DNA from: Clostridia bacterium
Lineage (GTDB): Bacteria; Bacillota; Clostridia; Oscillospirales; CAG-272
Direction of reading: 5' to 3'
DNA length: 64,000 nt
Assembly (NCBI GenBank): GCA_017625755.1
Contig: JAGAKG010000041.1
Span: 65,709-129,708, forward strand
Shown: positions 21,901 through 44,300 of the stretch, in pieces
Layout: every line of letters starts with the position of its first letter
Position numbering within the stretch: the stretch's first letter is position 1
Made by a program: the position numbers and the translations under genes
The notes under the pieces: model-generated
What the model was told of the DNA's origin: nothing
Database searches by the model: none
The model's input: only the letters and a program-made list of their open reading frames with translations

Positions 21901-21937
21901 GTGCGATAATGTATCGTGAAGAGGAGAAATCCTTTAT

Positions 21938-22013: not shown

Positions 22014-22016
22014 TAT

Positions 22017-22091: not shown

Positions 22092-22184
22092 AAACCGATG
22101 TGTTTCCTCGAAAGAGGTTGCGAGAGTTGTGGGTGCGGTAGTGTAAAAGCAGATAACCCTCAAAAACTTCAAAGGAGACGATAT

Positions 22185-22667: not shown

Positions 22668-22676
22668 GGAGGCAAT

Positions 22677-23246: not shown

Positions 23247-23247
23247 T

Positions 23248-25062: not shown

Positions 25063-25244
25063 TGAGCATTTTCAAGAAAATCTTCAAGCGACCTTCTTTA
25101 AGAGAGCGTGTAGCGACGCTCGAAAAGGCGGTTGCGGAGTTAAGCAAAAAGACAATATCAAAAACCACCACGGAGCAAGACGAGCCTCCTACGCCTACGC
25201 AGATTTTGGACGAGTGGTTCAACGGTAAGGAGGACGACGAATAA
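25062..25244 (+). CDS. small hypothetical protein between terL and portal
   Basis: ATG overlaps the terL stop (TAATG). Confidence 0.4.
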   Translation: MSIFKKIFKRPSLRERVATLEKAVAELSKKTISKTTTEQDEPPTPTQILDEWFNGKEDDE

Positions 25245-27253: not shown

Positions 27254-27326
27254 AACCGTATATGTTTGTCGTAAGCCGACTTGCCCCTTTTATAAAAAGC
27301 CTATCAAGGCTCAATCCAACCGATAG
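27201..27326 (+). CDS. 41-aa zinc-ribbon peptide overlapping the portal 3' end
   Basis: GGGAGG RBS. CPKC...CRKPTC. Confidence 0.35.
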   Translation: MLCPKCKTEATVKRIKGKTVYVCRKPTCPFYKKPIKAQSNR

Positions 27327-27399
27327 TCAATAGGTCGCTCCTATAACTATACAAAAATCTTACGCAGCAATAGCGGAAAAATGCAAAGGAGAACTTCTT

Positions 27400-28203
27400 A
27401 TGCCAGAAGAAATTAAAACAGCGCAAACAACCGTAGACACGGAGGTCGATAGCCACGCTGATGTCGACACCACCAAGGACGATGTAAACGATGTTGAGTT
27501 CACGGACACTCCGGGAGAACCGCAAGGCGGAACTACCGCTACGAAGGAAACCGGAACTACTCAAACAAAGGAACAGAACTCCGAAAACGCTCGCCGTAGG
27601 CGTGAGGCAGAACGCCAAGCCGAACTCGAAAGAGCGAAGGCGGCGGTAAGAGAACAAACCATTATCGAGACTCTCGGAGGCAAGAACCCCTACACCAACG
27701 AGGAAATGAAAGACCACGCCGATGTTGAGGAATACCTCGCTATGAGAGAAATCGCCAAGAACGGCGGAGACCCCCTCTCGGACTACTCGAAGTTCCAAAA
27801 GCAGAAGGAACGAGAAAGAGTCGAGCAAGCCGACAAAGCAGCGAAGGAAAAGGAATGGTATCGCAAAGACCAAGAGGATTTTGCAACCAAGCACCCGGAG
27901 GTCAATCTCCAAACGCTTATCCAAGACCCTCAATTCCAAAAGTTCGCAAGCGGTAAGGTCGGTGTACTCCCCCTCTCGGAAATCTACGAAGGCTTCATCG
28001 AGGTAGTTACCGAGTATGAAAAGAAGGCGAAGGCTATGGCGAAGCAAATGCTCGCAAACCAAAAGGCTTCTCCCGGCTCTCTGTCAAGCACGAATCCGAC
28101 CGATAGTGGCTATTTTACGAAAGAGCAAGTTCAAAAGATGACCCAAGCGGAAGTCCACGAGAACTATGACAAGATTCGTGCAAGTATGCGTAAGTGGAAA
28201 TAA
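27400..28203 (+). CDS. scaffolding protein
   Basis: Charged and helical, lies between portal and capsid genes. Confidence 0.6.
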   Translation: MPEEIKTAQTTVDTEVDSHADVDTTKDDVNDVEFTDTPGEPQGGTTATKETGTTQTKEQNSENARRRREAERQAELERAKAAVREQTIIETLGGKNPYTNEEMKDHADVEEYLAMREIAKNGGDPLSDYSKFQKQKERERVEQADKAAKEKEWYRKDQEDFATKHPEVNLQTLIQDPQFQKFASGKVGVLPLSEIYEGFIEVVTEYEKKAKAMAKQMLANQKASPGSLSSTNPTDSGYFTKEQVQKMTQAEVHENYDKIRASMRKWK

Positions 28204-28231
28204 AAAATAATTAACAAGGAGGAAATACATT

Positions 28232-29101
28232 ATGGCATACCAAAACTTTATCCCTACCGTGTGGAACGAAGGGATTGAAAGAGAACTCGAAAGAATTTGC
28301 GTGTTCGCCGAAGATTGCAACCGCAAGTACGAAGGTTCTGTCAAAGAAAAAGGCGAGTCCGTCAAGATTCTTGGCGTAGGCAAGCCTACTATCAAGAGCC
28401 TTGCAAAGGCTAACAAGAACAACGACATCGACGCTCCGGAGGAAATCGAAGATACTTCCGTTATTATGTACATCAACCAGATTCGCTACTTCAACTATAT
28501 GGTAGGCGACATCGACAAGGCGCAAGCGGTTGGTGGCATTATGGACGCTCTCGAACAAGAGACTTCCGAAGGTCTTGCAAACGAGGTAGATACCTACATC
28601 GCAAGCAAGGCGGTAGACGAGTCTGTTAAGGCTCTCTACGGCAACACTCCGGTTAAGGTTGTTGCAAACGAGAACGCCGGCACCGGCGAGAAGTATGTTC
28701 TCGATATTCTCGACGAAGCGCTTCAAAAACTCTACGAGAACGATGTTAAGTCGACCACCAAGATTGTCGTTACTATCTCTCCTCGTTTCTTCACTCTCTT
28801 CAAGAGAGCGTACATCAACAAGGACACCGATAATAGCGAAATGCTCAAAAACGGTAGAGTTGCGAAGTACGGCAACATCATCGTTAAGATGTCGAACAAT
28901 GTTCACAGAACGAGCAACGGTGCGGTCGATAACATTATGATTCGTACCCAGAGAGCAATCGCTTTTGCGAAGCCTCTCACTCACACCGAGCCTTATCGCC
29001 CGGAAAAGAAATTCGCTGACGCCGTTAAAGGCTTCATTCTCTTCGACGCAAAAGTCGTTCGTCCGAAGGAAGTCATTAACATCAATGTCAAGTACGCATA
29101 A
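28232..29101 (+). CDS. major capsid protein (P22-coat-like N-terminus)
   Basis: AGGAGG RBS. NFIPTVWNEGIERELERICVFAEDCNRKYEG...G.SVKI resembles P22-coat-family starts. Followed by a small gene and a strong terminator. Confidence 0.7.
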   Translation: MAYQNFIPTVWNEGIERELERICVFAEDCNRKYEGSVKEKGESVKILGVGKPTIKSLAKANKNNDIDAPEEIEDTSVIMYINQIRYFNYMVGDIDKAQAVGGIMDALEQETSEGLANEVDTYIASKAVDESVKALYGNTPVKVVANENAGTGEKYVLDILDEALQKLYENDVKSTTKIVVTISPRFFTLFKRAYINKDTDNSEMLKNGRVAKYGNIIVKMSNNVHRTSNGAVDNIMIRTQRAIAFAKPLTHTEPYRPEKKFADAVKGFILFDAKVVRPKEVININVKYA

Positions 29102-29115
29102 GGAGGTAAAGAACT

Positions 29116-29433
29116 ATGGCTTTGACTATGAGAAATACTATTGCGGAGGTTACGCTTGAAGCGCTTACCGCAAACACCGCAAAGGCTATTGCTTGGAACG
29201 AGAAGGACGAACACACCGTTCTCGTTATCAATGCGGCTGCTCAAACCGACCTTACCGTTAAGGCTGGCAACGGAATCCAGGGTGTAACCGACCTCGTGCT
29301 TACCGTTCCCAAGGGCGTGAGCCTTGTAAAACTCGAAAGCGGTAGATTCAAGAATGTGTCTGGCGCAAACAAGGGCAAGGTTATCGTCGTTTCGACCGGT
29401 ACGCCCAGCGTTGGCGTTGTAGCGCTCGTTTAA
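29116..29433 (+). CDS. small virion protein (possible decoration protein)
   Basis: Position after the capsid gene; beta-rich sequence. Confidence 0.4.
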   Translation: MALTMRNTIAEVTLEALTANTAKAIAWNEKDEHTVLVINAAAQTDLTVKAGNGIQGVTDLVLTVPKGVSLVKLESGRFKNVSGANKGKVIVVSTGTPSVGVVALV

Positions 29434-29444
29434 GAAGCAAACAA

Positions 29445-29477
29445 AGAGCCTATCTATTGGTTAGGTAGGCTCTTTTA
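29445..29477 (+). terminator. rho-independent terminator after the capsid operon
   Basis: Stem AGAGCCTA / TAGGCTCT followed by TTTT. Confidence 0.7.
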
Positions 29478-29518
29478 TGCAATTAAAGGGCGAAAATTGC
29501 TCACAAGGAGATGATTTT

Positions 29519-30157
29519 ATGAAATTAGGAGACATCAAAATTGAGGCGTTAAAGTTGATGTTCGTCAATATGGGAGACGACATCGACATCGAGAGCCTCG
29601 AAACCTACGCCCAAGATGAAATCTACAAAAGTTATCTCGTGAATATGCCTGGGGCGATAAATCGTTGTTTTGCGAGCATTGAAGAGAAGAGAGTCCTTCC
29701 GTCCAAGTCAAGGACTTTGCAACGCTCCGAGGCGCTTGCAAGTGGCGGATTCGTGCGCTTTGACCTCGCTTCCCTTATCTCCGACTTCTTCGACATTGAT
29801 AGAATCGTGAGGGAAACCTCCGACGGAGACTACGAGGGCGATTGCGACTACACGACCGAAGGCGACACGCTTGTTCTTGACCGATACGAGGAAGAGGACG
29901 GTGTAACCTACACGGTTCTTTATAAGCCGACTATCGAGAGGATAACCTCTTCGACCGACGACAACACGGAAATCGCTATTCCCAACAATATCGCTGCATA
30001 TATCCCCTACTTCTTGAAGGGAGACCTTTATCGAGACGACGAGCCGAACGAGGCGAGCGAGGCTCGAAATTGGTACGAGCAAGCGATGAACGAGATATAC
30101 CTCAAAAAAGAACACAAGACGAATAGAATCAAGTCGGTCTATTCGCAAACGGAGTAA
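29519..30157 (+). CDS. head-tail adaptor/connector-like protein
   Basis: AAGGAGA RBS. Position-based call. Confidence 0.4.
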   Translation: MKLGDIKIEALKLMFVNMGDDIDIESLETYAQDEIYKSYLVNMPGAINRCFASIEEKRVLPSKSRTLQRSEALASGGFVRFDLASLISDFFDIDRIVRETSDGDYEGDCDYTTEGDTLVLDRYEEEDGVTYTVLYKPTIERITSSTDDNTEIAIPNNIAAYIPYFLKGDLYRDDEPNEASEARNWYEQAMNEIYLKKEHKTNRIKSVYSQTE

Positions 30158-30162
30158 AGCCT

Positions 30163-32733
30163 ATGAAAGCGAATACCAACATCACTCTCAAAAATAGGCG
30201 AACTCTCACGCTCGGAAACTTCAAGGGCGTAGACTTTTCCTCTTCTCCGTTGAGCGTTCGTAGCGATAGAGCCTCAAATATGAGGAACTTCATCAACGAG
30301 TACGGCGTCAACAAGAAGAGAAATGGTTGGAACGAACTTCTCAAAATCAAACACGGCGGAGTGGCGCAGCGCATAAACGGTATATTCGAGTATGTGAACG
30401 GCGACCGCCGAGAGATGTTAGTTCACGCCGGAAAGAGATTTTATCGTCTTACGAAATCCGACGGAAAGTATTCGTACCAAGACATCACGCTTTCCTCTAC
30501 CTACGCTCCGGCGAAGTGCGATGTAGGACTTCTTAAAGACCAAAGAAGCCAAGCCTTCTTTAATAAAGGCAAGGCGTATATTATCGGTTGCGGAGACTAC
30601 CTCGTATACGGAACTTGGAACGACGGAGGCTCTTACGAACTCCGAAGGGTGGCAAACAACGAGGACACTTATATTCCGACGACTACAATCTCTATCGACC
30701 CGGACGATGTTATGGACGATACGAGAGGAAGCCTCGACGATATAAATTGTCTATCGAGGAAGCGTATCAACCAACTTCTCGGAAGTGCCGAAGCGAACAA
30801 AACCTGGACGCTCGACGCCGGGGAAATTGACGACGGAACGGCGGTAGAGATTAAACTCGAAACCGTCGAAGGCTCGGAGGAAAACGAGGTCGCCGTCGAA
30901 TACCTCATCAAGAACAACCAAACCGACAAGACAAAACTCTATAAGGTAGCCAAGAACGGAACGGCTATGACGGCGGAAGAGTGCGGTTCGCTCGTTTATG
31001 CAACCGGTAAAATAACGCTCTCTATCTCCTCCGCTCCTCAAATCGAGAACAGAGATAACATTTATGTTACCTACGAACACTCGAACGAAGGCTATCTTGA
31101 AAGGATTATGAATTGCAACTTCGGAATCCTTTTCGGCGTAGACGGTAACACCGACCGACTCTTTTTGAGTGGCAACTCGGATTATCCGAATATCGACTTT
31201 CACTCGGAAATGGACGACTACACCTACTTTGGAGACCTCAACACCGCTTCAATGGGAAGCGACTCGGTTGCGGTCAACGGCTACGCTCGACTTTCCGATA
31301 GTACGCTCGTAATCTACAAGGCGGAAACCGGGCAAGAGGCAAGTATCTTCTACCGCACCGGCTCTTATAGAGAATCCTACGATTCGAGCGGAAACCTTGA
31401 ATCTATCCGAGGCGTATTCCCAACCTCCGCCGGAAGTATAGGCGAAGGCGTTGTGAGTCGTTACGCTTGCGTAAACTTCGCCGGCGATAACATCATTCTC
31501 TCGAAGAATGGCGTTTTCGGAATCGTACTTGCGGAGAATGTCGCAACGACCGAGAGATACACAAGAGAACGCTCTCGTTCTATCAACGAAAGGCTCAAAA
31601 GACACGAGAACCTCTCCGAGGCGGTCGGAATCGTTTATAAGAACCGCTACTACCTCGCCGTTGACAATGTATGCTATATCGCCGATTCGAGATATAAGTA
31701 TACCTCCGAGGATAGCGTAGACGGCTCGTACAACTACGAGTGGTGGTTCTGGGATAATGTTCCGGTTCGTGTGTGGGCGAATATCGGAAACGAATTATAC
31801 TTCGGAAGCGCCGACGGTCAAGTCTGTGTGTTTGACGATGAATACACCGATAGAACCTACCAACAAAGCGCAGCCGGAGACCTCGCTCTCGACATCTCGG
31901 ACAACAAGATAACCTACAACCAAAATATCGACATCGCCCTCTCGGAAGGCGATAGAATAACCTTCTCGACTAACGGAATCTACGCTCTCGCTTCGGATAG
32001 CGTCGTCGTAGAAAACGGTCGAATCAAAACCACCGAGGACAAGATATTCTCCTTCCACGACGGAATGGAGGTATACGCCGACAATGTAGGCGATAGCGGA
32101 CTTTCAATAAACACGAAATACTATGTTCGTGAAATCGACGCCGGCGAATGTACTTACTCGCTCGAAGATAGGAGCGGTAACGAAATCGCCCTTGCAAGCG
32201 GAGGCTTCCGCCTCTACCGTTCAATCTCAAACACCGAACTTTACATAACGAATATAACCGAGGACTCGTTCCAGGTTAAAAGTTATAAGGCGGCGGACGA
32301 GTTGATTCTTGCAAGTTATAACGGCGTAGTTCCTACGACACCGCTTGCCACTTTCGCTCATATCCAAAATGTTGTGGCGGAGTTCTATACGCCGGTATTT
32401 GACCTCGGAACGAACGAGTCGAGCAAGACTCTCTTAAAAATGACAATCTCTACCGAACCGGAAGTCAACGGAAAACTCTCCTTTGGTTACGAGACGAGGA
32501 ATGTAAATAAACTCATCAACGCCAAGGGAATCAATGTGTTCTCCTTCGATAACTTCTCCTTCGAGAACTTCTCGTTCGATACCGGATTCGCCAACAGTTA
32601 TTCGGTTAGAAGCAACGAAAGGAACTTTAACTTCATTATCTTCCGCTTCGTCTCCGATAACGATAGTAATTGCATAGTGAACACCTTCACTATCATTTAC
32701 AAAATCAACAAAGCAAACAAAGGAGTGAAGTAG
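30163..32733 (+). CDS. large virion structural protein (tail/adsorption apparatus)
   Basis: 856 aa, lies between the adaptor and fibre genes. No motif recognised. Confidence 0.4.
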   Translation: MKANTNITLKNRRTLTLGNFKGVDFSSSPLSVRSDRASNMRNFINEYGVNKKRNGWNELLKIKHGGVAQRINGIFEYVNGDRREMLVHAGKRFYRLTKSDGKYSYQDITLSSTYAPAKCDVGLLKDQRSQAFFNKGKAYIIGCGDYLVYGTWNDGGSYELRRVANNEDTYIPTTTISIDPDDVMDDTRGSLDDINCLSRKRINQLLGSAEANKTWTLDAGEIDDGTAVEIKLETVEGSEENEVAVEYLIKNNQTDKTKLYKVAKNGTAMTAEECGSLVYATGKITLSISSAPQIENRDNIYVTYEHSNEGYLERIMNCNFGILFGVDGNTDRLFLSGNSDYPNIDFHSEMDDYTYFGDLNTASMGSDSVAVNGYARLSDSTLVIYKAETGQEASIFYRTGSYRESYDSSGNLESIRGVFPTSAGSIGEGVVSRYACVNFAGDNIILSKNGVFGIVLAENVATTERYTRERSRSINERLKRHENLSEAVGIVYKNRYYLAVDNVCYIADSRYKYTSEDSVDGSYNYEWWFWDNVPVRVWANIGNELYFGSADGQVCVFDDEYTDRTYQQSAAGDLALDISDNKITYNQNIDIALSEGDRITFSTNGIYALASDSVVVENGRIKTTEDKIFSFHDGMEVYADNVGDSGLSINTKYYVREIDAGECTYSLEDRSGNEIALASGGFRLYRSISNTELYITNITEDSFQVKSYKAADELILASYNGVVPTTPLATFAHIQNVVAEFYTPVFDLGTNESSKTLLKMTISTEPEVNGKLSFGYETRNVNKLINAKGINVFSFDNFSFENFSFDTGFANSYSVRSNERNFNFIIFRFVSDNDSNCIVNTFTIIYKINKANKGVK

Positions 32734-32734
32734 T

Positions 32735-34561
32735 ATGGCAAAAGTACATAAAACAAGCGCCGAAGTCAAATCGGCGATACAAAGAAAATCCGCTTACTCG
32801 CTCCCCAACAACCCCACGGATTCCGGCTTTAAGGCAAGCGATATTCGTAACGCCTTCTATAAGCCTATTATCGACATCACGAACTCCGCCTTAACGGAAA
32901 TCGACCGAATCGTCGAGGAACTCAACGGCGTGTTGGGTCTCGCTACGAAAGATGTGGACGCTATCGAGAATGTTGCCGGCTTGAACTATCACGGCTCGGA
33001 CGGCTTGATTTATTCCTTCAACGGAAGCGCCTTCACGGTTAGCGGAAACGACGAACTCGAAGGCGAGGTTTCCATTCCTTCCTCCGTGTTCTATCAAGAC
33101 AAATACTACCCGGTGGTCGCTATTGCGGCGAACGCTTTTAGTGGTAGCAAAATCACGAAGGCGGAGATTGCTTCGTCTGTGGAGACCGTCGGAGAAAAGG
33201 CGTTTTACGCCTCCACTCTTACCTCGGTTAAGTTCTACGGAAGCGCTTCAATCGGAGCGAACGCTTTCTACGCTGGGCGTGTTGCGTTTAGCGTACCGAA
33301 GGAATACCTCTCCGCTTACGAATCGTCGCTTGCAAGTTATAAAAAGACGCTTGTAGGCTTCGATACGATAGCCAACAACGCTCTCAATATCGCAGCGCTC
33401 TTCCGAGATAAAGTCGATAAGATTATCGGAGAATCCGCAAACGAGAGGGCGTACATCATCTCCAAGACCGGAGCGCAAATCACGAGAAAGTTGGTTACAA
33501 CTCCGACCGACGGAGAAATCCCGGTATACTTAACCGGCGGAAGAATCCCGGTCAAGACTCCTCAAACGGACGACGACGCAACGCCGAAGGGATATGTAGA
33601 AGATAGGCTCGAATCTATGGGCGCATACATCGCCTTCTCGATAGACCCTACAAACTACAAAATGACGATTCAGTTGAAGAACGAGGACGGAACGGTTTTG
33701 AGTTCCGGCTCGGTCGACCTTCCTCTCGAAAGTATGATTCTCGGAGCGAAGTACGCAAACGGAATCCTCTCTCTCAACATCAAGACCGCCGACGGCTCGA
33801 TGAACAACACCGTTATTGATGTCAACATCTCCGACCTTATCTCCGGTCTCGTTAGCGACGACACCTTCGAGGCGGAGGTTGGAAGGCTTGACGGAAGAAT
33901 CAATCAAGCCAACAACGCCCACCAGGCGCTCGTTGCGGAGGTAGACCAAAAGGAAATCTATGCTCACGCCGCCTTCCACTCGGAAGAGGCGGAGACCGCA
34001 AGGAACTATACCAAGGGAGGCAAGACGGATAAAAAATTCCGTGAAATTGAGGCTATCGGCGCAACGAACCTCTCCCTCTCGCTCGACAAGGATTATAAGT
34101 TGACCGTAAAACTCTTGAACAAGAAGGGCGTGGTTATTGCCGACGGTATGGTTGACCTTCCTATCGAGAGCCTCATCACAAAGGCTTCGTATAGCAATAA
34201 AATCCTTACGCTTACCTTCCAGAGCGGAGACACCTTGAAGGTAGACATCTCCTCGATTATAAGCGGTCTCGTACCGGACGCAAGAACTATCAACGGAAAG
34301 AACCTCAAAGCGGACATCACGCTCACGGCTTCCGATGTAGGCGCTTATGCAAAAGACGAGACTTTCAACAAGTCGGAGGTAACGAACCTTCTCGGAAATC
34401 AAAAACAAGAACTCCTCGTCGGAATCGAGGAACACCAGGTTGTCGGTTACGCTTACTCTTCCACCGAGGCGGAGAAAGCGAGCGGTTACATCAAAGGCGG
34501 CGGAATCGACAAAGCGCTCAAAGCACTCGACAAGAGACTCTCTACTCTTGAAGATAAATAA
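32735..34561 (+). CDS. tail fibre-like protein with BspA-type leucine-rich repeats and two ~75-aa internal repeats
   Basis: LRR block VAIAANAFSGSKITKAEIASSVETVGEKAFYASTLTSVKFYGSASIGANAFY. Repeats: ...VDLPLESMILGAKYANGILSLNIK... and ...VDLPIESLITKASYSNKILTLTFQ.... Confidence 0.55.
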   Translation: MAKVHKTSAEVKSAIQRKSAYSLPNNPTDSGFKASDIRNAFYKPIIDITNSALTEIDRIVEELNGVLGLATKDVDAIENVAGLNYHGSDGLIYSFNGSAFTVSGNDELEGEVSIPSSVFYQDKYYPVVAIAANAFSGSKITKAEIASSVETVGEKAFYASTLTSVKFYGSASIGANAFYAGRVAFSVPKEYLSAYESSLASYKKTLVGFDTIANNALNIAALFRDKVDKIIGESANERAYIISKTGAQITRKLVTTPTDGEIPVYLTGGRIPVKTPQTDDDATPKGYVEDRLESMGAYIAFSIDPTNYKMTIQLKNEDGTVLSSGSVDLPLESMILGAKYANGILSLNIKTADGSMNNTVIDVNISDLISGLVSDDTFEAEVGRLDGRINQANNAHQALVAEVDQKEIYAHAAFHSEEAETARNYTKGGKTDKKFREIEAIGATNLSLSLDKDYKLTVKLLNKKGVVIADGMVDLPIESLITKASYSNKILTLTFQSGDTLKVDISSIISGLVPDARTINGKNLKADITLTASDVGAYAKDETFNKSEVTNLLGNQKQELLVGIEEHQVVGYAYSSTEAEKASGYIKGGGIDKALKALDKRLSTLEDK

Positions 34562-34579
34562 TTTTAGGAGGACAAAACA

Positions 34580-35677
34580 ATGCTTTTAGAGAAAACGAAA
34601 ATCTATGGCGTGGATAATGTAGGACAATCGAGTCCTACTTTAACCAGAACGGACGCAGCCGTAGGACTCGGCTACACTATCGGAACGAGCGAAATTCAAA
34701 GCGACTTCGATAGATGTTTTCCGTGGTGTGAGATGAAGGAGGTTACGGACGAGTTCGGAAATGTCTTTATCCGTGTTCCCAAGTTCTACACCAAAATCAC
34801 GAAAAATGCAAACGGCACTTATAAGCACCAAATCTCTGGTTGTCGCTACGACGGCTTCGGCACTCTCTTTGTAGACGGCAAGGGTAACGAACTTGACTAT
34901 ATCCTCATCGGTAAGTACGAAGGTTCTTACGACTCCGAACATTCGAGAATGATGTCGAAGAGCGGTCAAACGGTAAAGGTAAGTATCACGCTTCCGAACT
35001 ACCGCAAGGCTTGTATGGCGGTCGGCGAAGGCTACCAGCAATACGACTTCCTTATCGACGCTATCATCAAGGAACTCTTTATGATTGAGTTTGCGACTAC
35101 GAACTGTCAATCCATTATGAAGGGATTTACTCACGGCGACAACACCGCCGCCCTCATTACCGGTCATACCGACAATGTAAAGACGGCTTCTGGCTCGTAC
35201 AACAACAATCACGACCTCGAAGTAGACCCTTGGGTCGATACTACTTGCAACACCGACGCTCTTCACGCTTGCAAGTACAGAGGAATCGAGAACCCTTGGG
35301 GTAACACCTGGACTTGGTGCGACGGTATCAACTTCAAGAAGGAGAAGATTTATATTTGCGAATCTCCTACCGATTACGCTTCGGATAAGTACGACGCTCC
35401 GTACACCTATGTCGGCGATAGACCCGGCGAAGGCTATGTAAAGGCGGTAACTCCTTTTGCGAAGAATCCCCTTCTCGGCTATGTGTCGGAGGTTGGCGGC
35501 GGAAGTACCACTTACTACTCCGACTACTCCTATTATGCAGACGGTGGAACCGTGCTGTTTTGCGGTGGGTCTTGGAGCAGCGGCGTCTACGCCGGTTTGT
35601 GGTATTGGGGTGGTTACTCCTCCTCGTCCAACGCTTACGGTTCCTTTGGCGGTCGCCTTTGCTATAAACCTCTTTAA
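34580..35677 (+). CDS. DGR target protein (receptor-binding protein with C-terminal variable region)
   Basis: The C-terminal 40 codons constitute the VR. GGSW..G..AG...W...... pattern ending GGRLCYKPL, as in C-type-lectin-fold DGR targets. Confidence 0.85.
   Translation: MLLEKTKIYGVDNVGQSSPTLTRTDAAVGLGYTIGTSEIQSDFDRCFPWCEMKEVTDEFGNVFIRVPKFYTKITKNANGTYKHQISGCRYDGFGTLFVDGKGNELDYILIGKYEGSYDSEHSRMMSKSGQTVKVSITLPNYRKACMAVGEGYQQYDFLIDAIIKELFMIEFATTNCQSIMKGFTHGDNTAALITGHTDNVKTASGSYNNNHDLEVDPWVDTTCNTDALHACKYRGIENPWGNTWTWCDGINFKKEKIYICESPTDYASDKYDAPYTYVGDRPGEGYVKAVTPFAKNPLLGYVSEVGGGSTTYYSDYSYYADGGTVLFCGGSWSSGVYAGLWYWGGYSSSSNAYGSFGGRLCYKPL
35550..35660 (+). repeat. DGR variable repeat (VR)
   Basis: 111 bp aligned to TR at a +200 bp offset. 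19 mismatches, all opposite TR adenines. Confidence 0.9.
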
Positions 35678-35689
35678 GAGAGGGATTAT

Positions 35690-35709
35690 AAGGGAGACAC
35701 ATCTCCCTT
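35690..35709 (+). promoter_or_regulatory. 8-bp stem / 4-nt loop hairpin 30 nt downstream of VR (DGR target-recognition hairpin candidate)
   Basis: AAGGGAGA-CACA-TCTCCCTT. Not followed by a T-run. Confidence 0.55.
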
Positions 35710-35749
35710 GGAAATAAAACAAAAAACTTTATAGGGTCGTGTGTGCAGC

Positions 35750-35860
35750 CCGTGCTGAATTGCGGTGGGAATTGGAACAACGGCGACAACGCCGGTTTGT
35801 GGAATTGGAATGGTAACAACTCCTCGTCCAACGCTAACGGTAACATTGGCGGTCGCATTT
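35750..35860 (+). repeat. DGR template repeat (TR)
   Basis: Adenine-rich copy of VR (AAC/AAT codon-like triplets), non-coding, upstream of the RT. Confidence 0.9.
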
Positions 35861-35976
35861 TAATCGAAAATTATTATGTAGCACACACAATCCTTGCCCC
35901 TTGGCAAAAAACACTTCGCAAAGAGGACGGTTTAGTAGGTTTATTCTCGAAAGACCGTGAGGAGATTAAAAGGATT

Positions 35977-37068
35977 ATGAAGAGAGTTGGTTTCTTATAC
36001 GAAAAGGCTTGCGATATAGACCTTATCCGCTACGCTATACGCCAGGCGGCGAAGGGCAAGACCAACAAACACTATATAGCGAAGGTTCTTGCGAACGAGG
36101 AATCTTACGCTTTGAAAATCAAGGAAATGCTCGAAAGCAACACCTTAAAGTTGAGTCCGAATCGACAAATCGTTTTGTTCGACCACTCTTGTATGAAGGA
36201 GAGACTCATTACCGTTCCGAAGTTCTTCCCAGACCAAATAATCCATTGGGTAGTCGTTCTCGTTTTAGAGCCTATCTTCAAGAAGGGAATGTATCGTTTT
36301 AATTGCGGTAGCGTTCCGAGTCGAGGAGGCTTGGAGGCGAAGAAATATGTAGAGCGTGTTCTCAAAGATGAGAAGGTTCGTTATGTTGCAAAGTTGGATA
36401 TATCGAAGTTCTTCAATAGCGTTCGCCCTCACTACTTAATGGCTATGTTTCGGAGGAAAATCAAGGACGAGAAGTTCTTGCGCCTCATAGAGGCGATTCT
36501 TGAAAACGGAGGCGATTGTCTCCCTATCGGATATTATACTTCTCAATGGTTCTCTAACTTCTTTCTTGAAGGTTTCGACCACTTCGTAAAGGAAGAGTTG
36601 AAAATCAAATACTATGTACGATATGTCGACGATATGGTTCTACTCGATACGAACAAGCGAAAACTCCGCAAGGCTATCGAGGAAATCGAGAAGTATCTCG
36701 GCAACATCGGATTGAAACTCAAAGCGAACTATCAAGTATGGAAGGTGCATAGCCGACCGATAGACTTCGTTGGGTTTAGGTTCTACAAAGACAAAACACT
36801 TTTGAGGAAGAAAATCTTCTTTCGATTGTGTCGCCGAGTGAGGAGAATTAGGAAAACCGGGTATATCACGGTTCGCCAAGCGCAAGGGATATTATCTTTA
36901 CTCGGCTGGCTATGTCATATCAACGGTTGGAAGTTCTATAAGGAGCGGATATATCCCTATGCTCCGAAATGGAAACTCAAACTCATCGTGAGCAATCACG
37001 CTAAAAAATTAAATTCGGAGGTACGAAGAAATGAAATTCAGCAAAGCAAAGTGGTTAGAGTCTGCTAA
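35977..37068 (+). CDS. DGR reverse transcriptase
   Basis: GAGGAG RBS before the ATG at 35977. LDISKFFNSV (motif 3-like), IGYYTSQWFSNFFL (DGR-type motif 4), YVRYVDDMVLL (YxDD), IDFVGFRF. Confidence 0.9.
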   Translation: MKRVGFLYEKACDIDLIRYAIRQAAKGKTNKHYIAKVLANEESYALKIKEMLESNTLKLSPNRQIVLFDHSCMKERLITVPKFFPDQIIHWVVVLVLEPIFKKGMYRFNCGSVPSRGGLEAKKYVERVLKDEKVRYVAKLDISKFFNSVRPHYLMAMFRRKIKDEKFLRLIEAILENGGDCLPIGYYTSQWFSNFFLEGFDHFVKEELKIKYYVRYVDDMVLLDTNKRKLRKAIEEIEKYLGNIGLKLKANYQVWKVHSRPIDFVGFRFYKDKTLLRKKIFFRLCRRVRRIRKTGYITVRQAQGILSLLGWLCHINGWKFYKERIYPYAPKWKLKLIVSNHAKKLNSEVRRNEIQQSKVVRVC

Positions 37069-37207
37069 CGCTCAAATCGAGCAAGGTATTCTTTCCCAAA
37101 GAGAGGTCGACGACGCTCTCGACATCTGGGTCAACGAAATGGACGGCAAGACCGAGGAGGAAATCAAAGCCTCCGGCGGCGAAGTCAATCCTATGTGGCT
37201 CGTATGA
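37031..37207 (+). CDS. 58-aa hypothetical protein overlapping the RT 3' end
   Basis: GGAGG RBS. Below the ORF-track cutoff; translated by hand. Confidence 0.35.
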   Translation: MKFSKAKWLESANAQIEQGILSQREVDDALDIWVNEMDGKTEEEIKASGGEVNPMWLV

Positions 37208-37353
37208 AAATAACAATCGAAAACATCTGCTCTATCTGTGAGACCGGAGGAGGTTGCGACGAACCTTGTGAAAAATGGTACGATTGCCTCGAAGGTAAGC
37301 CGGTCGACTTCGGTCTCGTAGATGAGGAAGGAGAAAACAATGAAAAAAAGTAA
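37204..37353 (+). CDS. 49-aa Cys-rich hypothetical peptide
   Basis: ATGA overlap with the previous ORF. CSIC...C..C...C. Confidence 0.3.
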   Translation: MKITIENICSICETGGGCDEPCEKWYDCLEGKPVDFGLVDEEGENNEKK

Positions 37354-37843
37354 GATAGTAGTTTTATTTATTCTTGGTTTTGTTCTCGGAGCGCTCGCCG
37401 CCGTCGGCGTGTACTTTTTGACCGTCGGAGAAGTGGCTTGGCAAGAGTATGTCGAGACCAAGTTGATTCCGAATGTCGTTCTCGCCCTCTCGGCTATCTC
37501 GGCGTTATGCGTTGCGGCGCTTCCTATTATAAGCAAAATCCAAGTCTCTGTCGCCAAATTCAACCAGGCTACGAGCGATGTAAACGCTACGGTAGAAAAC
37601 GGCAAAAAGACCGACGAGAAACTCGCCGAGCAAGACCAAAAAATTGAAGCCTTCTCGGAGCGCTTCGATAAAATGGAAGAGATGTTTAACGCCGGTATCG
37701 CTTCGGTAAAATCCGCCGCCGAGAACTCGGAAAAGATATTGAGGCTTGGCTTCTGTAACACCGAGGAACTCGTGAAGAAAGGCTATGCGACGGAAATCGA
37801 AAAGGTAGGTGCGAAAAATGAGCAAGACGAAGAAGAAGCCTAA
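37340..37843 (+). CDS. membrane protein (N-terminal TM + coiled coil)
   Basis: MKKSKIVVLFILGFVLGALAAVGVYFL TM segment, followed by a second hydrophobic segment. Confidence 0.55.
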   Translation: MKKSKIVVLFILGFVLGALAAVGVYFLTVGEVAWQEYVETKLIPNVVLALSAISALCVAALPIISKIQVSVAKFNQATSDVNATVENGKKTDEKLAEQDQKIEAFSERFDKMEEMFNAGIASVKSAAENSEKILRLGFCNTEELVKKGYATEIEKVGAKNEQDEEEA

Positions 37844-38264
37844 CCTCCGATTGAGGCTCGTTCTCCTCTATATCGGAAGTTTTATCACTTGTATCGCCCC
37901 TCTTCTCGTGTGTTTCATCGTAAATTGGGATAAATATACCAAGACACCAAGCGACACCGTGAAGTTGTGTATCGGCGGTATGCTTGCCGTGTTCTTCCTT
38001 TTCTTGAAGGTTATCGGCAAACTCAAAATGCCTCGAAGAATTGTATTGTTCGGTATAGTCTTTATTATGGCATACTTATTACAAGCAATACTCGACGACC
38101 TCATTTTGTTAAGCAGTATGGCTCTCGCCGGGGAGTTCCTCGATTTTGTATGCTTCCAAAGAGCAATCCGAATCACGAAAGAGAATATCCTCATCGGCAA
38201 GACCGCAGACACGACCACGGCGCAAGTCGAGGAAGTTCTCAAAAAATACATAGGGAGGGTTTAA
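37818..38264 (+). CDS. multi-pass membrane protein
   Basis: Four hydrophobic segments. ATG at 37818 preferred over GTG at 37809. Confidence 0.5.
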   Translation: MSKTKKKPNLRLRLVLLYIGSFITCIAPLLVCFIVNWDKYTKTPSDTVKLCIGGMLAVFFLFLKVIGKLKMPRRIVLFGIVFIMAYLLQAILDDLILLSSMALAGEFLDFVCFQRAIRITKENILIGKTADTTTAQVEEVLKKYIGRV

Positions 38265-38267
38265 TGT

Positions 38268-39185
38268 ATGAACGAGAAAATTAGAGATTTTTTTCGGAAT
38301 AATCTTGGCTATTTTATAGTCGGATTCGCTTCCGTTGTTTACATCTTGACCGCCTTCCTTACGATAGACCAGACCGGGAAGTCTCCGGCGCAGATTATCG
38401 CCGACGGCGCTATTGCGTTCTTTCTCGGTCTTTTTATAAACCGTATCTTCGACCTTCAAGGTATGATGAGCGGCGACCGTGAGGAAAGAGTTCAAGCGAC
38501 CAAGGAGGAACACGGAACTATCGTTCTTCGTATCTCTCCCCATATCGACAAACTTGACGATTGGTGCGAGGAAGAAAACAAGCGCAACTACAAGATTCAA
38601 AGAACGAAGATTCTCGCTCGTGTAGGTCTCAAATACGACGATTGCTTCGACGAGGACGGCGTTGCGAAAGATTGGCGACCAAACGAGGCAAGCCTCCAAG
38701 TCAAAGGTCTCAAACGAATCGAGCAACGAAAGGTTCGTGGTTTCCTTAAAGCCGTAAACTTGAAGTTGACCCCTCTCTCCGCCGGCGAACTTACAAGCGA
38801 AGGCGGAAAGCAGCAAGACCCCTTCTACTTCGGACGAACCAAGGCTCAATACGAGGCTCAACATAGTCTCGGAGACCTTATCTCGAAATTCGGTACGGCG
38901 ATTATATTCGGCTACTACGGCGTTTCTCTTATAGAGAACTTCGACTATGCGAGACTCATCTGGACGACCTTGCAAGTGGCTTTATTCCTTGTTATGGGCG
39001 TGATTAAGATGTATCAAGCGTACAACTTCGTCGTAGACGAGTTCCGTGGGAGAATCGTCAAGAAAATCGACAACTTGCAAAAGTTCGATAACTATATCAA
39101 GTCTCTACCTCCTCCCTCGGTAGAGCCGGTTATTCCGACCGAAACGGAAGAAGAAAAACCTACGGAGGTAAACGAAGATGAGTAA
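38268..39185 (+). CDS. membrane protein (TM pairs at both ends)
   Basis: Hydrophobic segments at aa ~15-70 and ~215-260. Confidence 0.5.
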   Translation: MNEKIRDFFRNNLGYFIVGFASVVYILTAFLTIDQTGKSPAQIIADGAIAFFLGLFINRIFDLQGMMSGDREERVQATKEEHGTIVLRISPHIDKLDDWCEEENKRNYKIQRTKILARVGLKYDDCFDEDGVAKDWRPNEASLQVKGLKRIEQRKVRGFLKAVNLKLTPLSAGELTSEGGKQQDPFYFGRTKAQYEAQHSLGDLISKFGTAIIFGYYGVSLIENFDYARLIWTTLQVALFLVMGVIKMYQAYNFVVDEFRGRIVKKIDNLQKFDNYIKSLPPPSVEPVIPTETEEEKPTEVNEDE

Positions 39186-41382
39186 ATACGGAAACTCGTA
39201 TTCCGGCAACGACTTCCTTGAATGGTGGAAAACTCACTACGGAACGGACTACGACGGCAAGAGCGGAATCGTAAAAACCGAAGGAATGACCGACGAAGAT
39301 GTTGCAATCGGTAAGAGCCTTCTCAACTCGTATAACGAGCAACAGTTGCTCACGCAGCAATATAACGAGAATGTGGCGACCGAGACCGACAAGTACAACT
39401 CTTTGATTGAAAGTTCCGACAAGGCGTATGATTCTCAACTCGCCGGAGCGCAAGCGGAGTACGACACGAGCGCAAAACTTCTTCTTGATAACTACAACAA
39501 GAATAGCGCTACCGCAAAGGATATATACGACCGCAACACGGCGGAACTTCTTGCGAACTACGGCACGGCGCAAGACGCTCTTGATAAGAGCAAGCGTCAA
39601 TCCCAACAGAACGCAAGTATCACGCTTGACAAGTTAAAGAAGTATCTTCCTTCGCAAATCAAGGCGCAAGGTCTCGGAGGTCTCGGCGTGAGCGAGTCCT
39701 CTATGCTTCAAGCCTATAACAACTACAATAGCGAAATGGGTTCTATCGAAAGTGGCTACCAAGAGAGCAAGACCAACCTCGACACGAACTACAATACCAA
39801 CAAGAACGCCTACGATACCGCCTATCAAGAGACCCAAGGAAGTCTCGACGAAATGTACGGTCAAAGCAAGGCGAACCTTGATAATTCCTTCAACACAACG
39901 AAGGTAAATCTCGAATCGGCGAAATCCCAAGCAAGTGATACCTTCAAGGCGCAACTTGCGGACTCTCTCGCAAAGTTAAAGCAAGGCTACGACGCCGGTA
40001 TTTTTGCTTCCGATAAGGACGCTAACGGCAATCTTCTCGTAGACAATGTTCTCCAAGAGTACGCTAAAATGCTCTCCGAGGAGCAAGGCGTGAACTATGC
40101 AACCGCCCTCGAAGCGATTCGCAACGCCGTCTTTACAACCGGCGACGAGATGAACGCCTTTGTAGAGCAATATAGAGGCAAGGTCAACGACCAACAACTC
40201 GCAGCGCTCTTCCAGGAGGGAACGAATGTAGCGAATGTAAACGCCGAAAATGCTCGCCAAGAAGGAATCAAAAAGACCGAGCAAGAACAAGCGCTTGCTT
40301 TCAGCAGCGCCCAGGAAGCAATCATCAATAGCGGTCTCTCCTCGCAAGAAGAAATGAACACCTTTGTAGAACAGTTTAGAGGAAAGGTTAGCGATTCTCA
40401 ATTTGCTTCGCTCCAAGCAACGGCACAAGCAACCGTATCGTCGAACATCTCCGGTAAGTATACGACTCAAATGGGTGTTGTTCAAGACGGACTCGCACAA
40501 ATGCTCGCCGAACCGAGCAACTACACAACCGACGGCACGAAACTTACGGAACAAGGTAGACAAAAAATGCTCGACTATATCGAGCAAAACAAGGCGTCTA
40601 TCGGCGACGCAAACTACACGGCTCTCAAAACGCAAATTGAGGGAATGGCGTTCTATTCAAACAGCGAGAGAAATTCGAGTATTGCGACCGCTATCAACGC
40701 CTTTACGAACAACTCGAACTTCAACTCGCAACTTTCTCAATACTACGACGCCCTCAATATTCTCGAATCCCACAAAGGAACTCTTACCAATGAAGAGTAT
40801 AACTCTTTCTTGGCTCAAATCAATAGCGGCACGAGGGTTGATTATAGCAACTACTATGTTCAAGGTTTGGGTAGCGGTAGGAATAACGATGATATTGATA
40901 TTACTATCGGTTCTACGAGTAGAAACAGAGACACCGAGTACGACCTCCTTTGCGGAGATGAGGTAACGAACGATTCCGCAAAGAAACTTTTGAATAAGTT
41001 GACTACCGGAACGGAGAGCGTAACTCCGAGCGAAGGAAAGTTGTGTGTCGTGGCAAATAGAATGTACATTTACACATCAAAGGGTTGGAGAAATGTCAAG
41101 CCGGATAATAGCACGAGCGCCTTGTCTAATGCAATATCCGCCTTTCTTACCACCGGGAAGAGTTCCGGAAACACTAAATCGAGTGAACCGGTTACATACC
41201 CTTCCGATAGTGAAATTTCCAACAAGGCTCAAAGCGGTACGCTTACCTATAACGATGTCGCAAAGTACAACCCCGGCATAAGAACGCAAAGTGAGTTCGC
41301 TCGTGGAAACAACGCAGATAAGCAAAAGTACGGCACTTATCAAAATTATCTTAAAGCGATGTACGAGAAATATAAACCATAA
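39178..41382 (+). CDS. N/Q-rich coiled-coil virion protein
   Basis: 734 aa. Repetitive (N/D)xYN..K.. pattern. Position before the giant gene. Confidence 0.45.
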   Translation: MSKYGNSYSGNDFLEWWKTHYGTDYDGKSGIVKTEGMTDEDVAIGKSLLNSYNEQQLLTQQYNENVATETDKYNSLIESSDKAYDSQLAGAQAEYDTSAKLLLDNYNKNSATAKDIYDRNTAELLANYGTAQDALDKSKRQSQQNASITLDKLKKYLPSQIKAQGLGGLGVSESSMLQAYNNYNSEMGSIESGYQESKTNLDTNYNTNKNAYDTAYQETQGSLDEMYGQSKANLDNSFNTTKVNLESAKSQASDTFKAQLADSLAKLKQGYDAGIFASDKDANGNLLVDNVLQEYAKMLSEEQGVNYATALEAIRNAVFTTGDEMNAFVEQYRGKVNDQQLAALFQEGTNVANVNAENARQEGIKKTEQEQALAFSSAQEAIINSGLSSQEEMNTFVEQFRGKVSDSQFASLQATAQATVSSNISGKYTTQMGVVQDGLAQMLAEPSNYTTDGTKLTEQGRQKMLDYIEQNKASIGDANYTALKTQIEGMAFYSNSERNSSIATAINAFTNNSNFNSQLSQYYDALNILESHKGTLTNEEYNSFLAQINSGTRVDYSNYYVQGLGSGRNNDDIDITIGSTSRNRDTEYDLLCGDEVTNDSAKKLLNKLTTGTESVTPSEGKLCVVANRMYIYTSKGWRNVKPDNSTSALSNAISAFLTTGKSSGNTKSSEPVTYPSDSEISNKAQSGTLTYNDVAKYNPGIRTQSEFARGNNADKQKYGTYQNYLKAMYEKYKP

Positions 41383-41394
41383 TAGGAGAAAAGA

Positions 41395-44300
41395 ATGGCT
41401 ACATATAATCTAACTCCTGCTGAAAGAAGAGCAAGAGCGCAAGCGATAGTACAAGCGCGCGAAAACCGCATTTCTTATTCCAACTATTTAAGAGATAAGA
41501 AGGCGTTAGAGGAAATGCAAGAAGCCGAAAGACAAAGGCAACTCGAAGAGGAAAGTCGAAACAATAGCGCAAACTTCCTCGTTCGTGGCTTATCCACTAT
41601 CGGAGATGTCGTCGGAAATGTACTTACCGGAGCGGTTAAAGGTCTCGAAGGTATCGTAGACCTTGGAATCGCCGCCGTTGGTGCGGTCGGTGGAATCTTC
41701 TCCGATGATTTTCAAGACACAATGAGGCAAGCGGTATCATACGACTTCGCCGGAGAGATTGTTGGCAATCCTCTCCAAGAGGCTATGAAATACTCCTACC
41801 TCGAAAACGGCGGAATCGTCGAGCAAGTATCGAGTGGTATCGGTCAAATGCTCCCGGCGGTTATCGCTACCATAGCAACATACGGAGCATACGGCGGCTT
41901 TGCCGCCGGTGCTTCTGCTGCACAAGTGGCGGCGGCACAAGCGGCGGCACAAACCGCTTCGCTCGTTACCTTGGGCGTGAGCGCCGCCGGTACATCTACC
42001 GAAGAAGCCTTCAACGAAGGTGCAAACTACTACGCCGGTCTTGGATATGGCGTAGCCTCCGGTCTTGTAGAAGTAGGAACGGAAAAACTCTTCGGTGGCG
42101 CAACGAAGGCTCTTACCGGCGCTGGCGTGTTTGACGGTATTACAAAGTCCGTAGCGGAAACCGGCTGGAAGAGAGTTGCAAGAAACGCTCTCGAAGAAGG
42201 TGCAGAAGAAGTTATCGCCGAACTCGCTCGTCCGGCGCTCAAAACTATTTACAAGGGAACGGACGCTCTTTCCGAATACGGCGAAGGAGAATATTGGAAA
42301 GGCGTTGGAACGGCTGGTCTCGTAGGCTCTATGACCGCTCTTGCTTATAGTGGCTCTATCGGCTACGGATTGTCGAAGGCTGGTATCGGTTACTCTGGCA
42401 AAGAAGCCGACATCTCCGACTCCCTCACGGAAATCGGCTCTCTTCGTGAAAGAGCAATCAATTTCCAAGCGGAAGATACGCTCGACGAAACCAACGAGCG
42501 CAAGATTGCCGACGCAACGAAGAAGAACTATCAAAATATCGAAGGCGTTCTCAAATCCGTCTCCGAAACTCGTAGAGCGAAACTTATCGAGAAGTTTAGT
42601 CTCTCGAAGGCTTTTAACGCCGACGGAACTATGAGCGAGCAATTAAGCGCTTGGTTCAACGGAGATGTAACGGAGGCACGAGTGAACGGTTCTACCGAGA
42701 ACGACGATTATACGCCACTTGCAAGTCCTAAAAAGACCTCCTATTCCTTCTCTTTGCGTGGCAACGAAGCGACGATTCAATCCGACCTCGATAGGCTCTC
42801 CGAGAATAGAGCGCAAGCCTACCTCGAAGAACATCAAGCGCTCGGAGAAAACATCACTATCGAGCAAGCAAGAGAAGCGGTTGGAAAGTTCTCTGTACTT
42901 ACTTCCGAGATGTCGGACAAGGCGAAGGCGGCTCGTCGCAAGTTTAACAAGGCTCTCAATGCCCTCAATAGAATCTCCGGTCTCAATACCTCCTTCGTTA
43001 TCACGGAGGCGAACGAGACCTTCGACGGCTCTCTCGTGGATAACGAGAGAATGTATATAAGCGCCGACGCTTTCGAGAATGACACCTGGGCGGAGACTAT
43101 CGTACACGAAGTTACCCACCTTGAAGAAGGTTCGGAAGAATACGCAAAAATGGTAGACTTCCTTCAATCCGACGATATTCTTGTCGATGTTCAAACCGAA
43201 AGTGGAGAGGTCAAGAGGATTCCTCTTTGGCAAAAAGCACAAAGCGCCGTTCTCGGAAAAGACTACGGATTCGATGAGAACAAAATCAAGGTTATCTCCG
43301 AAAAGGTCAACGCTCAAATGGGTCTTACCCCGGAAGAGGTAAAACTTTATAGAGAGTTTATGACCGAAGTCGCAGCGCACGAGACTCAATACCTTCTCGG
43401 AACGGAAGCCTTCATCGACAAGATTGTTGCTTCCGACCGCTCCCTCGCTCGTAAACTCGTCGATAAAATCCTCAATCTTAAAGAGGCTTTCTCGAAGGTT
43501 GGAGACAAGGCAACAAGAGGTCAACTCAAAATGCTTCGCCAGGCGGAGAAACTCTACCTCGACGCCGCTCGCAAAGCCGGCGATATGCGTCTTGTAAAAT
43601 ATATTCTTTCTCGCTCCCCGGAGACCGAAGAAGAGGTTGACTCCGACGCTCAAATCGTGTATAATAGAAAAGGACTATACAAACAGATTCCGAAGCAAGA
43701 GTATGCTATTATAAGTAGCCGTATTATGGAAGATAATTCGAGGTTTATGGCTCGTGAGGAAGAACTTCCGAGATACGGTGCGGCGAGAAGCGCTAACTAC
43801 TTCTATGTGTACGAAAACTTTGCTCCTGGCAACTTCGGAGTTTTGAAGCAAATCAAAATCACGGACGCAAATAGAGAATATATTGCTTCTATTGAAGCAA
43901 AAATAGGAGAAAACAATGGCGAATCAATTATCGGAAGCACAAGCGAACTTAATCGAGTGCTTGAAGTTCTTAAAAGTCAAGCAAGACGCAATCGTCGCAA
44001 TAATGCTCTTGATTCCGAAGGACGAGCAAATAGCGACAATGGCGGAATACCTCTTGGAGAATCCGAAGGCAAACGAACCGGAGATTCTCAAAAAGGCAAC
44101 GGAAATAAGCAAGGCGTAAGATTCGCCTTAAAAGATACCGTCGAGCAAGATGTTCTCGCAAAGTATGGCAAGACTTATCGTTGGACGGAGGCTGGTTATA
44201 TCCTCAAAGACGGAACGAGGCTTGACCTCTCCGGGCGTAACGAAGGCGCTTCCGGCGGTTATAGAACCGTAGACCATAGAGACATCTTCGATATTTACGA

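Follow-up and report, generated by a model that had tools for sequence, protein, structure and literature searches.

Near the middle of a 64,000-nucleotide (nt) stretch of DNA assigned to a Clostridia bacterium (GenBank assembly GCA_017625755.1, contig JAGAKG010000041.1; the whole stretch is here termed the window, with position 1 as its first letter), which comes from a 174-kb metagenome scaffold, two genes and a non-coding repeat follow one another on the plus strand between 34580 and 37068. The first gene (34580..35677, +) encodes a protein of 365 amino acids (aa), a distal tail-fibre and putative receptor-binding protein with a predicted C-terminal C-type-lectin fold. Its 3′ end is a variable repeat (VR, 35550..35660, +), which recurs downstream as a template repeat (TR, 35750..35860, +) with 27 adenines and 12 AAY codons (Y being C or T). 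The second gene (35977..37068, +) encodes a reverse transcriptase (RT) of 363 aa. Inspection of the letters alone had led to the proposal that these parts are a complete diversity-generating retroelement (DGR) aimed at a phage receptor-binding protein. The analysis described here leaves little doubt that the locus is a bona fide DGR lacking an accessory gene, of Architecture A1 (target-TR-RT), within a temperate prophage of gut Clostridia of approximately 40.8 kb.

Repeats, reverse transcriptase and target

The VR and TR form a direct repeat of 111 nt without gaps at an offset of exactly 200. This feature of the original prediction is reproduced both by a base-by-base comparison and by an independent run of a repeat finder, in which the pair is the top family. 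The copies differ at 19 positions, and at all 19 the TR base is adenine, so that 19 of the 27 TR adenines are affected (TR composition 27 A, 33 G, 25 C and 26 T; hypergeometric p=1.9e-15). From TR to VR the substitutions are A to T in 11 cases and A to C and A to G in 4 each. The VR is in frame and closes the target gene with approximately its 40 last codons, the aligned codons being 324-360 of 365. Fifteen TR codons contain adenine, 12 of them AAY, in keeping with the earlier remark that the TR adenines are mostly in AAC and AAT triplets, together with one GAC and two ATT (13 of the 15 are thus AAY or GAC), and the VR residues at these 15 codons are F, S, S, S, V, Y, Y, G, Y, S, N, Y, S, F and L. 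With 12 AAY codons plus GAC and ATT, about 2e15 protein variants are possible and no stop codon is reachable. A pattern with N at the adenine sites finds only the VR and TR copies in the window, where the expected number of matches is 0, and a looser scan of both strands of the window finds no further VR.

The TR lies within an open reading frame (ORF) of 441 aa that starts at a GTG (35743), and its translation as an N-terminal part of the RT was considered. None of the nine relatives examined keeps this upstream frame open, and for this reason the earlier description of the TR as non-coding is correct. The RT itself starts at ATG 35977, with an AGGAG ribosome-binding site upstream.

Matches to Pfam RVT_1 (6.3e-16) and phrog_1423 (4.8e-94) identify the product of 35977-37068 as an RT, and the ORF does contain the DGR-type motifs ascribed to it, PIGYYTSQWFSNFF and YVRYVDDMVLL. 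Its best match among PDB sequences is bRT of Bordetella phage BPP-1 (8ub7, the bRT-Avd-RNA complex; 3e-28, 102 bits), the best group II intron RT reaching 54 bits and a retron RT 26 bits. In the alignment with bRT, the catalytic Asp of LDISKFF corresponds to D138, YVDD to D215/216, IG...SQ to I181/G182/Q187, and the fingertip Arg and Ile to R74 and I76. The combination of IGYYTSQ and YVDD fits the DGR-clade motif [LIV]GxxxSQ / YxDD. NCBIfam models for group II RT/maturase, Drt3a and retron RT give matches that are all far below their cut-offs. A search of IMG/VR for the VR/TR pattern with N at the adenine sites returned no match, and relatives were gathered instead through the RT protein, giving 22 loci from viral contigs and 78 from species-representative genomes. 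Every viral locus with a detectable repeat has adenine-only mismatches, and of the 78 genomic loci, with RT identities as low as 25-30%, 45 have adenine-biased repeats on the RT strand according to a crude detector. On the strength of its nearest solved relative, its motif and the repeats beside its relatives, rather than of a formal tree, the protein can be classed as a DGR RT, which is the kinship that had been expected of it.

The close lineage supplies 14 distinct TR/VR pairs, and 224 of their 225 mismatches are at a TR adenine. Where loci have an identical TR and differing VRs, the variable columns coincide with TR adenines in 2 of 2, 15 of 15 and 15 of 16 cases. In the comparison of related loci, from which the mis-assigned L025 row was left out, changes at other TR bases between lineages, such as GGT versus TCG at 35839-35841, are mirrored in the cognate VR, which would be unexpected had the VR not been repeatedly overwritten from the TR. 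At the protein level, the 90%-identity cluster of the target holds 86 distinct sequences and the neighbouring clusters 135 and 626. An alignment of 15 members shows hypervariability at 14 of the 15 codons that contain adenine, with an entropy of 1.7-2.7 bits as against means of 0.08 bits for the other VR codons and 0.15 bits for the rest of the protein. The residues found at the GAC codon (V, D, G and A) and at the ATT codon (F, I, L and V) are exactly the four that can be reached by replacing A with any base, and K, E, Q, M and W occur at no AAY position. Variation in related phages and in the protein cluster is thus confined to the TR-adenine codons, as anticipated, and the recount, the RT kinship and this comparative variation all favour the signature having arisen by mutagenic retrohoming.

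The lone exception among the 225 mismatches is a T to G change in the VR of locus L027, adjoining a mutated A; occasional substitutions at bases other than adenine are known in DGRs. Another peculiarity concerns locus L012 (TR at ~5777-5887 of that locus), which has the same VR as L013 and L014 and a TR that differs from theirs at one codon, AAT in L013 and L014 and GCT in L012. GCT is the mutated VR codon, and the L012 codon looks like the result of a back-conversion from VR to TR or of an assembly chimera. In the Melainabacteria-associated loci L015 and L016 (~5315-5750) the detected VR is 455 nt from the TR and a second VR-like 3′ end (…GTCGCTCGCATACTAA) adjoins the TR; the target there may carry two tandem variable repeats.

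The 3′-most of the 19 mismatches, C at 35657 in the VR and A at 35857 in the TR, is of a different kind from the others. The same C/A pair is present in every related locus and Leu360, whose codon includes 35657, is invariant in the 15 protein-cluster members, which makes it a fixed difference between the initiation of mutagenic homing sequence (IMH) of the VR and its TR counterpart (IMH*) rather than a mutagenesis event. By this comparison the count becomes 18 mutagenised adenines of 26, within a mutagenised span of 35558-35645, plus one fixed boundary difference. The earlier figure of 19 mismatches, all opposite TR adenines, stands as a tally, the recount giving zero mismatches at other bases, and needs amendment only for this pair. 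The IMH-like 3′ end of the VR (35648..35677, +) consists of the GC-rich GGCGGTCGC (35648-35656) followed by CTTTGCTATAAACCTCTTTAA, which has diverged from the IMH* of the TR, ATTTTAATCG; IMH accordingly reads GGCGGTCGC-CTTTGC... and IMH* GGCGGTCGC-ATTTTA.... In all relatives the homology of VR and TR ends past 35660/35860, and GGRLCYKPL is unvarying in the target protein cluster.

Thirteen nt past the target stop codon is an inverted repeat (35690..35709, +; AAGGGAGA-CACA-TCTCCCTT) with an 8-bp stem and a 4-nt loop. Its DNA fold of -7.5 kcal/mol (z=-3.5) was equalled by 0 of 200 shuffles, and the hairpin is kept in the related loci compared. It is the counterpart of the BPP-1 hairpin/cruciform downstream of IMH. 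An inverted repeat there boosts BPP-1 retrohoming, and about one-third of DGRs have one.

Searches of Pfam, NCBIfam and PDB sequences with the target gave no match, and the informative comparisons are those with PHROGs, where it matches phrog_5302 'tail protein' (2.4e-61), and those of fold. Its AlphaFold model, built from 61 homologues, has a mean predicted local distance difference test score of 84.5. In a Foldseek search of the PDB the best match to the whole model is TaqVP of Thermus aquaticus (5vf4; E=1e-8, TM 0.5, 15-16% identity), itself the variable protein of a DGR, with the VR at its C-terminus and a C-type-lectin fold, and next come weak matches to Mtd, the BPP-1 target (E>0.1). TaqVP is a cellular protein, in contrast to the phage tail-fibre protein here. 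The modelled fold of the target is that of DGR C-type-lectin variable proteins, in keeping with what had been expected of its C-terminal part. The top matches in BFVD are gut-phage 'tail collar fiber' proteins, and crAss-like phage tail fibres are among the matches. The C-terminus of one 961-aa BFVD protein is 58% identical to the whole target, and tail fibres of 450-1060 aa in other phages end in the homologous module. Before the target gene are an 856-aa virion structural gene and, directly upstream, a 608-aa tail-fibre-like gene. From this position, the PHROG match and the structural matches to annotated tail fibres we infer, on good grounds, a receptor-binding role, and the 'receptor-binding protein' of the original prediction is retained as a probable function.

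The 608-aa and 365-aa genes are in the same frame, and the idea that they are a split tail-fibre gene was considered and rejected: two in-frame stops and an AGGAGG ribosome-binding site separate them, and the homologues of the target are mostly ~360 aa in size. The single 961-aa protein elsewhere, versus separate 608-aa and 365-aa genes at 32735-35677 of the window, suggests that fibre genes undergo modular fusion and fission.

RNA elements flanking the template repeat

The RNA of the BPP-1 DGR is known from cryo-electron microscopy (Handa et al., bioRxiv 10.1101/2023.10.23.563531). Sequences upstream and downstream of its TR form a 'cPRT Stop' duplex, past which come a short stem-loop, adenosines that are unpaired, the single-stranded 'thumb ring' and, last, a long stem that binds the RT. 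A comparable series of elements surrounds the TR described here. The plus-strand segment 35733..35746 (inverted repeat I11), which ends 3 nt before the TR, pairs with 35881..35894 (+), with compensatory changes in relatives on both strands of the duplex, and 35733-35746 is the counterpart of the avd strand of the BPP-1 duplex. Immediately downstream is a full-length match to the Rfam RT-18 RNA (RF03021; 35895..35972, +), covering model positions 1-84 and scoring 54.4 bits versus a gathering score of 41.3. It comprises a stem-loop at 35895-35906 (UGCC-CCUU-GGCA), a run of A to 35911, a single-stranded stretch and a long stem (35927-35933/35952-35958) with the conserved UAGUAG...CGAAA. Of 12 related loci, with RT identities as low as 37-41%, 11 have RT-18 directly 5′ of the RT. 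In an alignment of ten elements, 92.9% of the cells of duplex, hairpin and long stem are paired, as against 31-52% in slid controls, and 15 of the 24 RNA pairs show compensatory changes. For four of the five measures the observed value was attained by none of 500 shuffles, and for the fifth, 'further pair types', by 7 of the 500.

RT-18 is the spacer (Sp) RNA of this DGR. Weinberg et al. (2017, PMC5737381) published it as an orphan 'RT-associated' RNA, likewise situated directly upstream of RT genes, and linked RT-10 alone to a DGR. A putative primer strand, AUUAUUAUGUA (35870..35880, +), is present between TR and duplex, assigned from a pairing read off the sequence and from positional analogy to Sp47-56/A56 of BPP-1. 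Its nt 35870-35878 could form seven canonical pairs, plus two U-U mismatches, with nt 35856-35864 at the TR 3′ end. The priming nucleotide is placed, again by analogy, near G35878, 2 nt before the duplex, the spacing being the same as that of Sp A56 in BPP-1. The first templated base would then be G35855, in which case A35857 would never be copied and the VR would keep its fixed C.

The mechanism envisaged is as follows. An RNA of ~35733-35972, with ends that are approximate, would be transcribed, and its TR flanks 35733-46 and 35881-94 would pair and loop out the 111-nt TR. The downstream RT-18 element, with its short hairpin, A-run, single strand and long stem, would bind the RT, which would prime on its own RNA near 35878 and copy from ~G35855. 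Copying would be faithful save opposite the adenines, where any base could go in, and synthesis of the complementary DNA (cDNA) would halt on reaching the duplex, which is 3 nt upstream of the TR. This product would replace VR 35550-35656 of the tail-fibre gene, with the GC-rich IMH and the hairpin at 35690-35709 guiding the targeting, and the resulting variants would be displayed on the ligand-binding face of the C-type-lectin domain.

The likeness to the BPP-1 DGR (mtd-avd-TR-brt) extends from a tail-fibre gene whose 3′ end is the VR, and whose product has a predicted C-type-lectin fold, to the adenine-only TR/VR mismatches with AAY codons, the GC-rich IMH with its non-identical IMH* and downstream hairpin, the homologous RT (3e-28, with D138, D215/216, R74, I76, I181/G182 and Q187 kept), and the order of TR-flank duplex, short stem-loop, adenosines, single strand and long RT-binding stem in the RNA. 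BPP-1 has an avd gene and none was detected in the cassette here, and the BPP-1 RNA has ~58 nt from TR to duplex, with an 11-bp Avd-binding stem-loop after the TR, whereas here there are 20 nt and no such stem-loop. Also unlike BPP-1, the gap between VR and TR is 89 nt, the spacer RNA matches RT-18 and not RT-10, the target has only weak similarity to Mtd, and the host is a Gram-positive gut anaerobe. The RNA of a DGR without a detected Avd can in this way be mapped element by element onto the BPP-1 cryo-electron microscopy model, minus the Avd-binding stem-loop.

Accessory factors, activity and alternative explanations

Avd is encoded by 74% of DGRs and is essential in BPP-1. In the present cassette there is no room for an avd ORF between VR, TR and RT, and Avd-type Pfam families were found neither among 26 small ORFs of the prophage nor among the 131 small ORFs that lie up to ~3 kb from the RT in nine related loci. 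Target, TR and RT are on one strand, and the avd, HRDC, MSL and CH1 families are undetected, which is the composition of Architecture A1. 'Complete', the word used of the element originally, is apt in the sense of Architecture A and does not extend to an Avd accessory gene. Avd is not a universal defining feature of DGRs and avd genes are poorly conserved; Architecture A, the TR-RT core, accounts for 29% of 372 catalogued DGRs and Avd-independent retrohoming has been inferred for it (Wu et al. 2018, NAR 46:11; PMC5758913). The A1 DGRs of that catalogue share with this one the target-TR-RT core on one strand and the absence of an accessory gene. Their Avd-less Lineage 3a is from Bacteroides, as distinct from the Clostridia and Melainabacteria phages relevant here, and the 2018 study is without RNA anatomy or a link to RT-18. 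A full-text literature search found no later mechanistic study of accessory-less DGRs.

The balance of these considerations tips, modestly, toward a minimal two-component DGR, in which the RT and a TR RNA containing RT-18 mutagenise adenines without Avd, RT-18 serves as spacer RNA throughout an Avd-less lineage in phages of gut Clostridia and Melainabacteria, and the cPRT-Stop and RT-binding elements have been kept while the Avd-binding stem-loop was lost. An orphan RNA would so acquire a function, as the spacer RNA of a DGR lineage. The cassette is compact, at ~2.5 kb with the RT as its only protein gene apart from the target, and is a candidate for testing Avd-free mutagenesis. If the two-component interpretation is true, it would offer a smaller chassis for targeted mutagenesis in vivo and a natural test of what Avd contributes.

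Several points weigh against this interpretation or against present-day activity of the element. Poor conservation of Avd means that a negative search with hidden Markov models is no proof of its absence. The RNA structure was scored on the alignment from which it was derived, which somewhat inflates its support, and the primer:template pairing is without a convincing counterpart in the distant RT-18 loci L015-L018. A promoter scan found no plus-strand sigma-70-like promoter ahead of the TR. The identical 365-aa protein, VR included, is present in 3-4 assemblies of one project; the variation is known at the level of lineages, and recent activity with turnover of the VR is at most presumed for the present lysogen. 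Finally, directly 3′ of the RT are two small acidic ORFs of 58 and 52 aa (37031-37353, +; pI ~4.3), the first of which overlaps the 3′ end of the RT. They are conserved (57-100% identity) in close relatives and absent from distant RT-18 DGR loci, and could be unrecognised DGR helpers or simply syntenic phage genes.

It is conceivable, then, if on the doubtful side, that the DGR is not truly Avd-independent and that a divergent accessory factor, either one of these two ORFs or a host protein, acts with the RT. Besides the poor conservation of avd genes, the retention of both ORFs directly downstream of the RT in relatives of 62-100% identity would suit such a role, as would their acidity, a property that they share with the CH1 proteins described by Wu et al. 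as accessory to Avd-less DGRs. CH1 proteins, however, are of 160-169 aa as against 50-60 aa here, the absence of the ORFs from the more distant RT-18 loci would allow their conservation to be mere phage synteny, the 26 + 131 small ORFs searched contain no match to an Avd family, and the 20 nt between TR and duplex are too short for the 11-bp Avd-binding stem-loop of BPP-1. That the diversified protein is not a binder of host receptors at all, and is some other surface-exposed protein of virion or lysogen with a different ligand, is unlikely. Doubt on this score is fed by the lack of a Pfam, NCBIfam or PDB sequence match, by the dependence of the functional assignment on annotations of metagenomic homologues and by the target being an ORF of its own instead of the end of the 608-aa fibre gene. 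It is countered by the location of the gene directly after a tail-fibre-like gene in the tail module, by the 'tail protein' match to phrog_5302, by the occurrence of the homologous module at the end of 450-1060-aa tail fibres in other phages, and by the fact that the targets of phage DGRs are mostly tail proteins (Roux et al. 2021).

Slightly less probable again is a fossil, a DGR whose past activity left the adenine signature and which is now silent or dead in this prophage. The recurrence of the exact protein in several assemblies and the missing promoter-like site would fit, but a prophage that is clonal with its host would be expected to give identical consensus VRs in related samples. The RT ORF, moreover, is full length with intact catalytic motifs, the TR has kept every one of its 27 adenines along with its AAY codon design, conservation extends to the IMH hairpin and, with covariation, to the RNA elements, and close relatives with identical TRs have different VRs. 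The chance that the repeats are an ordinary duplication, diverged by chance or selection beside an unrelated RT such as that of a retron, a group II intron or a defence system, is close to nil. The sub-threshold NCBIfam matches of the RT to group II RT/maturase, Drt3a and retron models might seem to invite it, but these fall far short of their cut-offs and bRT is the best relative in the structural database by 48 bits. The recount and the comparative data refute such a duplication, given the p-value of 1.9e-15 for mismatches at A alone and the same adenine-only pattern in every related locus.

The prophage, its host and neighbouring genes

The element is part of a prophage of ~40.8 kb with approximate limits of 9192..49964, an 11-nt direct repeat, ATTATATCACA, at both ends marking putative attachment sites. 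A large serine integrase (9501-11198, minus strand; phrog_95 6e-112, with Resolvase, Recombinase and Zn-ribbon domains) is encoded near the left end, and the other phage genes include those for a CI-like repressor, a DnaC-like helicase loader, terminase, portal and major head protein. Toward the right the order is tail genes, DGR and then a gene for a 2695-aa polyvalent protein. A tRNA-Ser is present at the right end, and beyond it are bacterial genes, including one for [FeFe]-hydrogenase. The serine integrase, the CI-like repressor and the bacterial flanks on the same contig support a temperate phage, as had been proposed. Scans of the structural ORFs gave no PHROG or Pfam match to tail tube, sheath or tape-measure proteins, which is consistent with the earlier remark that tube and sheath genes are not recognisable. 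A weak match to SU10_adaptor is below its cut-off (21.5 vs 27 bits), and the best BFVD match is from a 'Podoviridae sp.' genome. The virion may well be short-tailed and podovirus-like.

Related viral contigs are of 40-42 kb, and long integrated relatives occur in metagenome-assembled genomes (MAGs) of Christensenellaceae and Clostridia from animal guts. A blastn search with 34000-38000 of the window found no nucleotide similarity to 50,697 deposited phage genomes. The host is a gut Clostridia (Christensenellaceae-like) bacterium. An 'Alistipes sp.' host was also considered, the short contigs L023 and L024, with RTs 99-100% identical, being in Alistipes MAGs. As the long integrated copies are in Christensenellaceae and Clostridia contigs, these were judged to be probably mis-binned phage contigs.

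Since gut-phage DGRs are already well catalogued and normally act on tail fibres, the finding is a solid annotation and not a discovery. Hankyphage, the Faecalibacterium prophages and crAss-like phages are likewise temperate or gut phages in which a DGR diversifies the C-termini of tail fibres, and the backbone here differs from theirs in its serine integrase, SU10-like adaptor and 2695-aa polyvalent protein. In an uncultured family of Clostridia prophages, common in animal guts, the cassette marks what is likely to determine host range.

Three other regions of the window deserve mention. Directly after two phage tRNA genes (Met and Gln; 21938-22091) is a gene (22098-22667, +) for a protein with two Tad2-like (Thoeris anti-defence 2) domains (PF11195, E=2.9e-27). 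At the right end of the prophage, the 2695-aa 'polyvalent' protein (41395-49482, +) contains an ART-PolyVal ADP-ribosyltransferase domain (PF18760, 2.7e-14) and may be an ejected or internal virion protein. To the left of the prophage, 1-9158 carries a D5-type primase fragment (47-853), two large serine recombinases (3028-5959) and a C-5 cytosine DNA methyltransferase (6237-8000), and looks like another mobile element.

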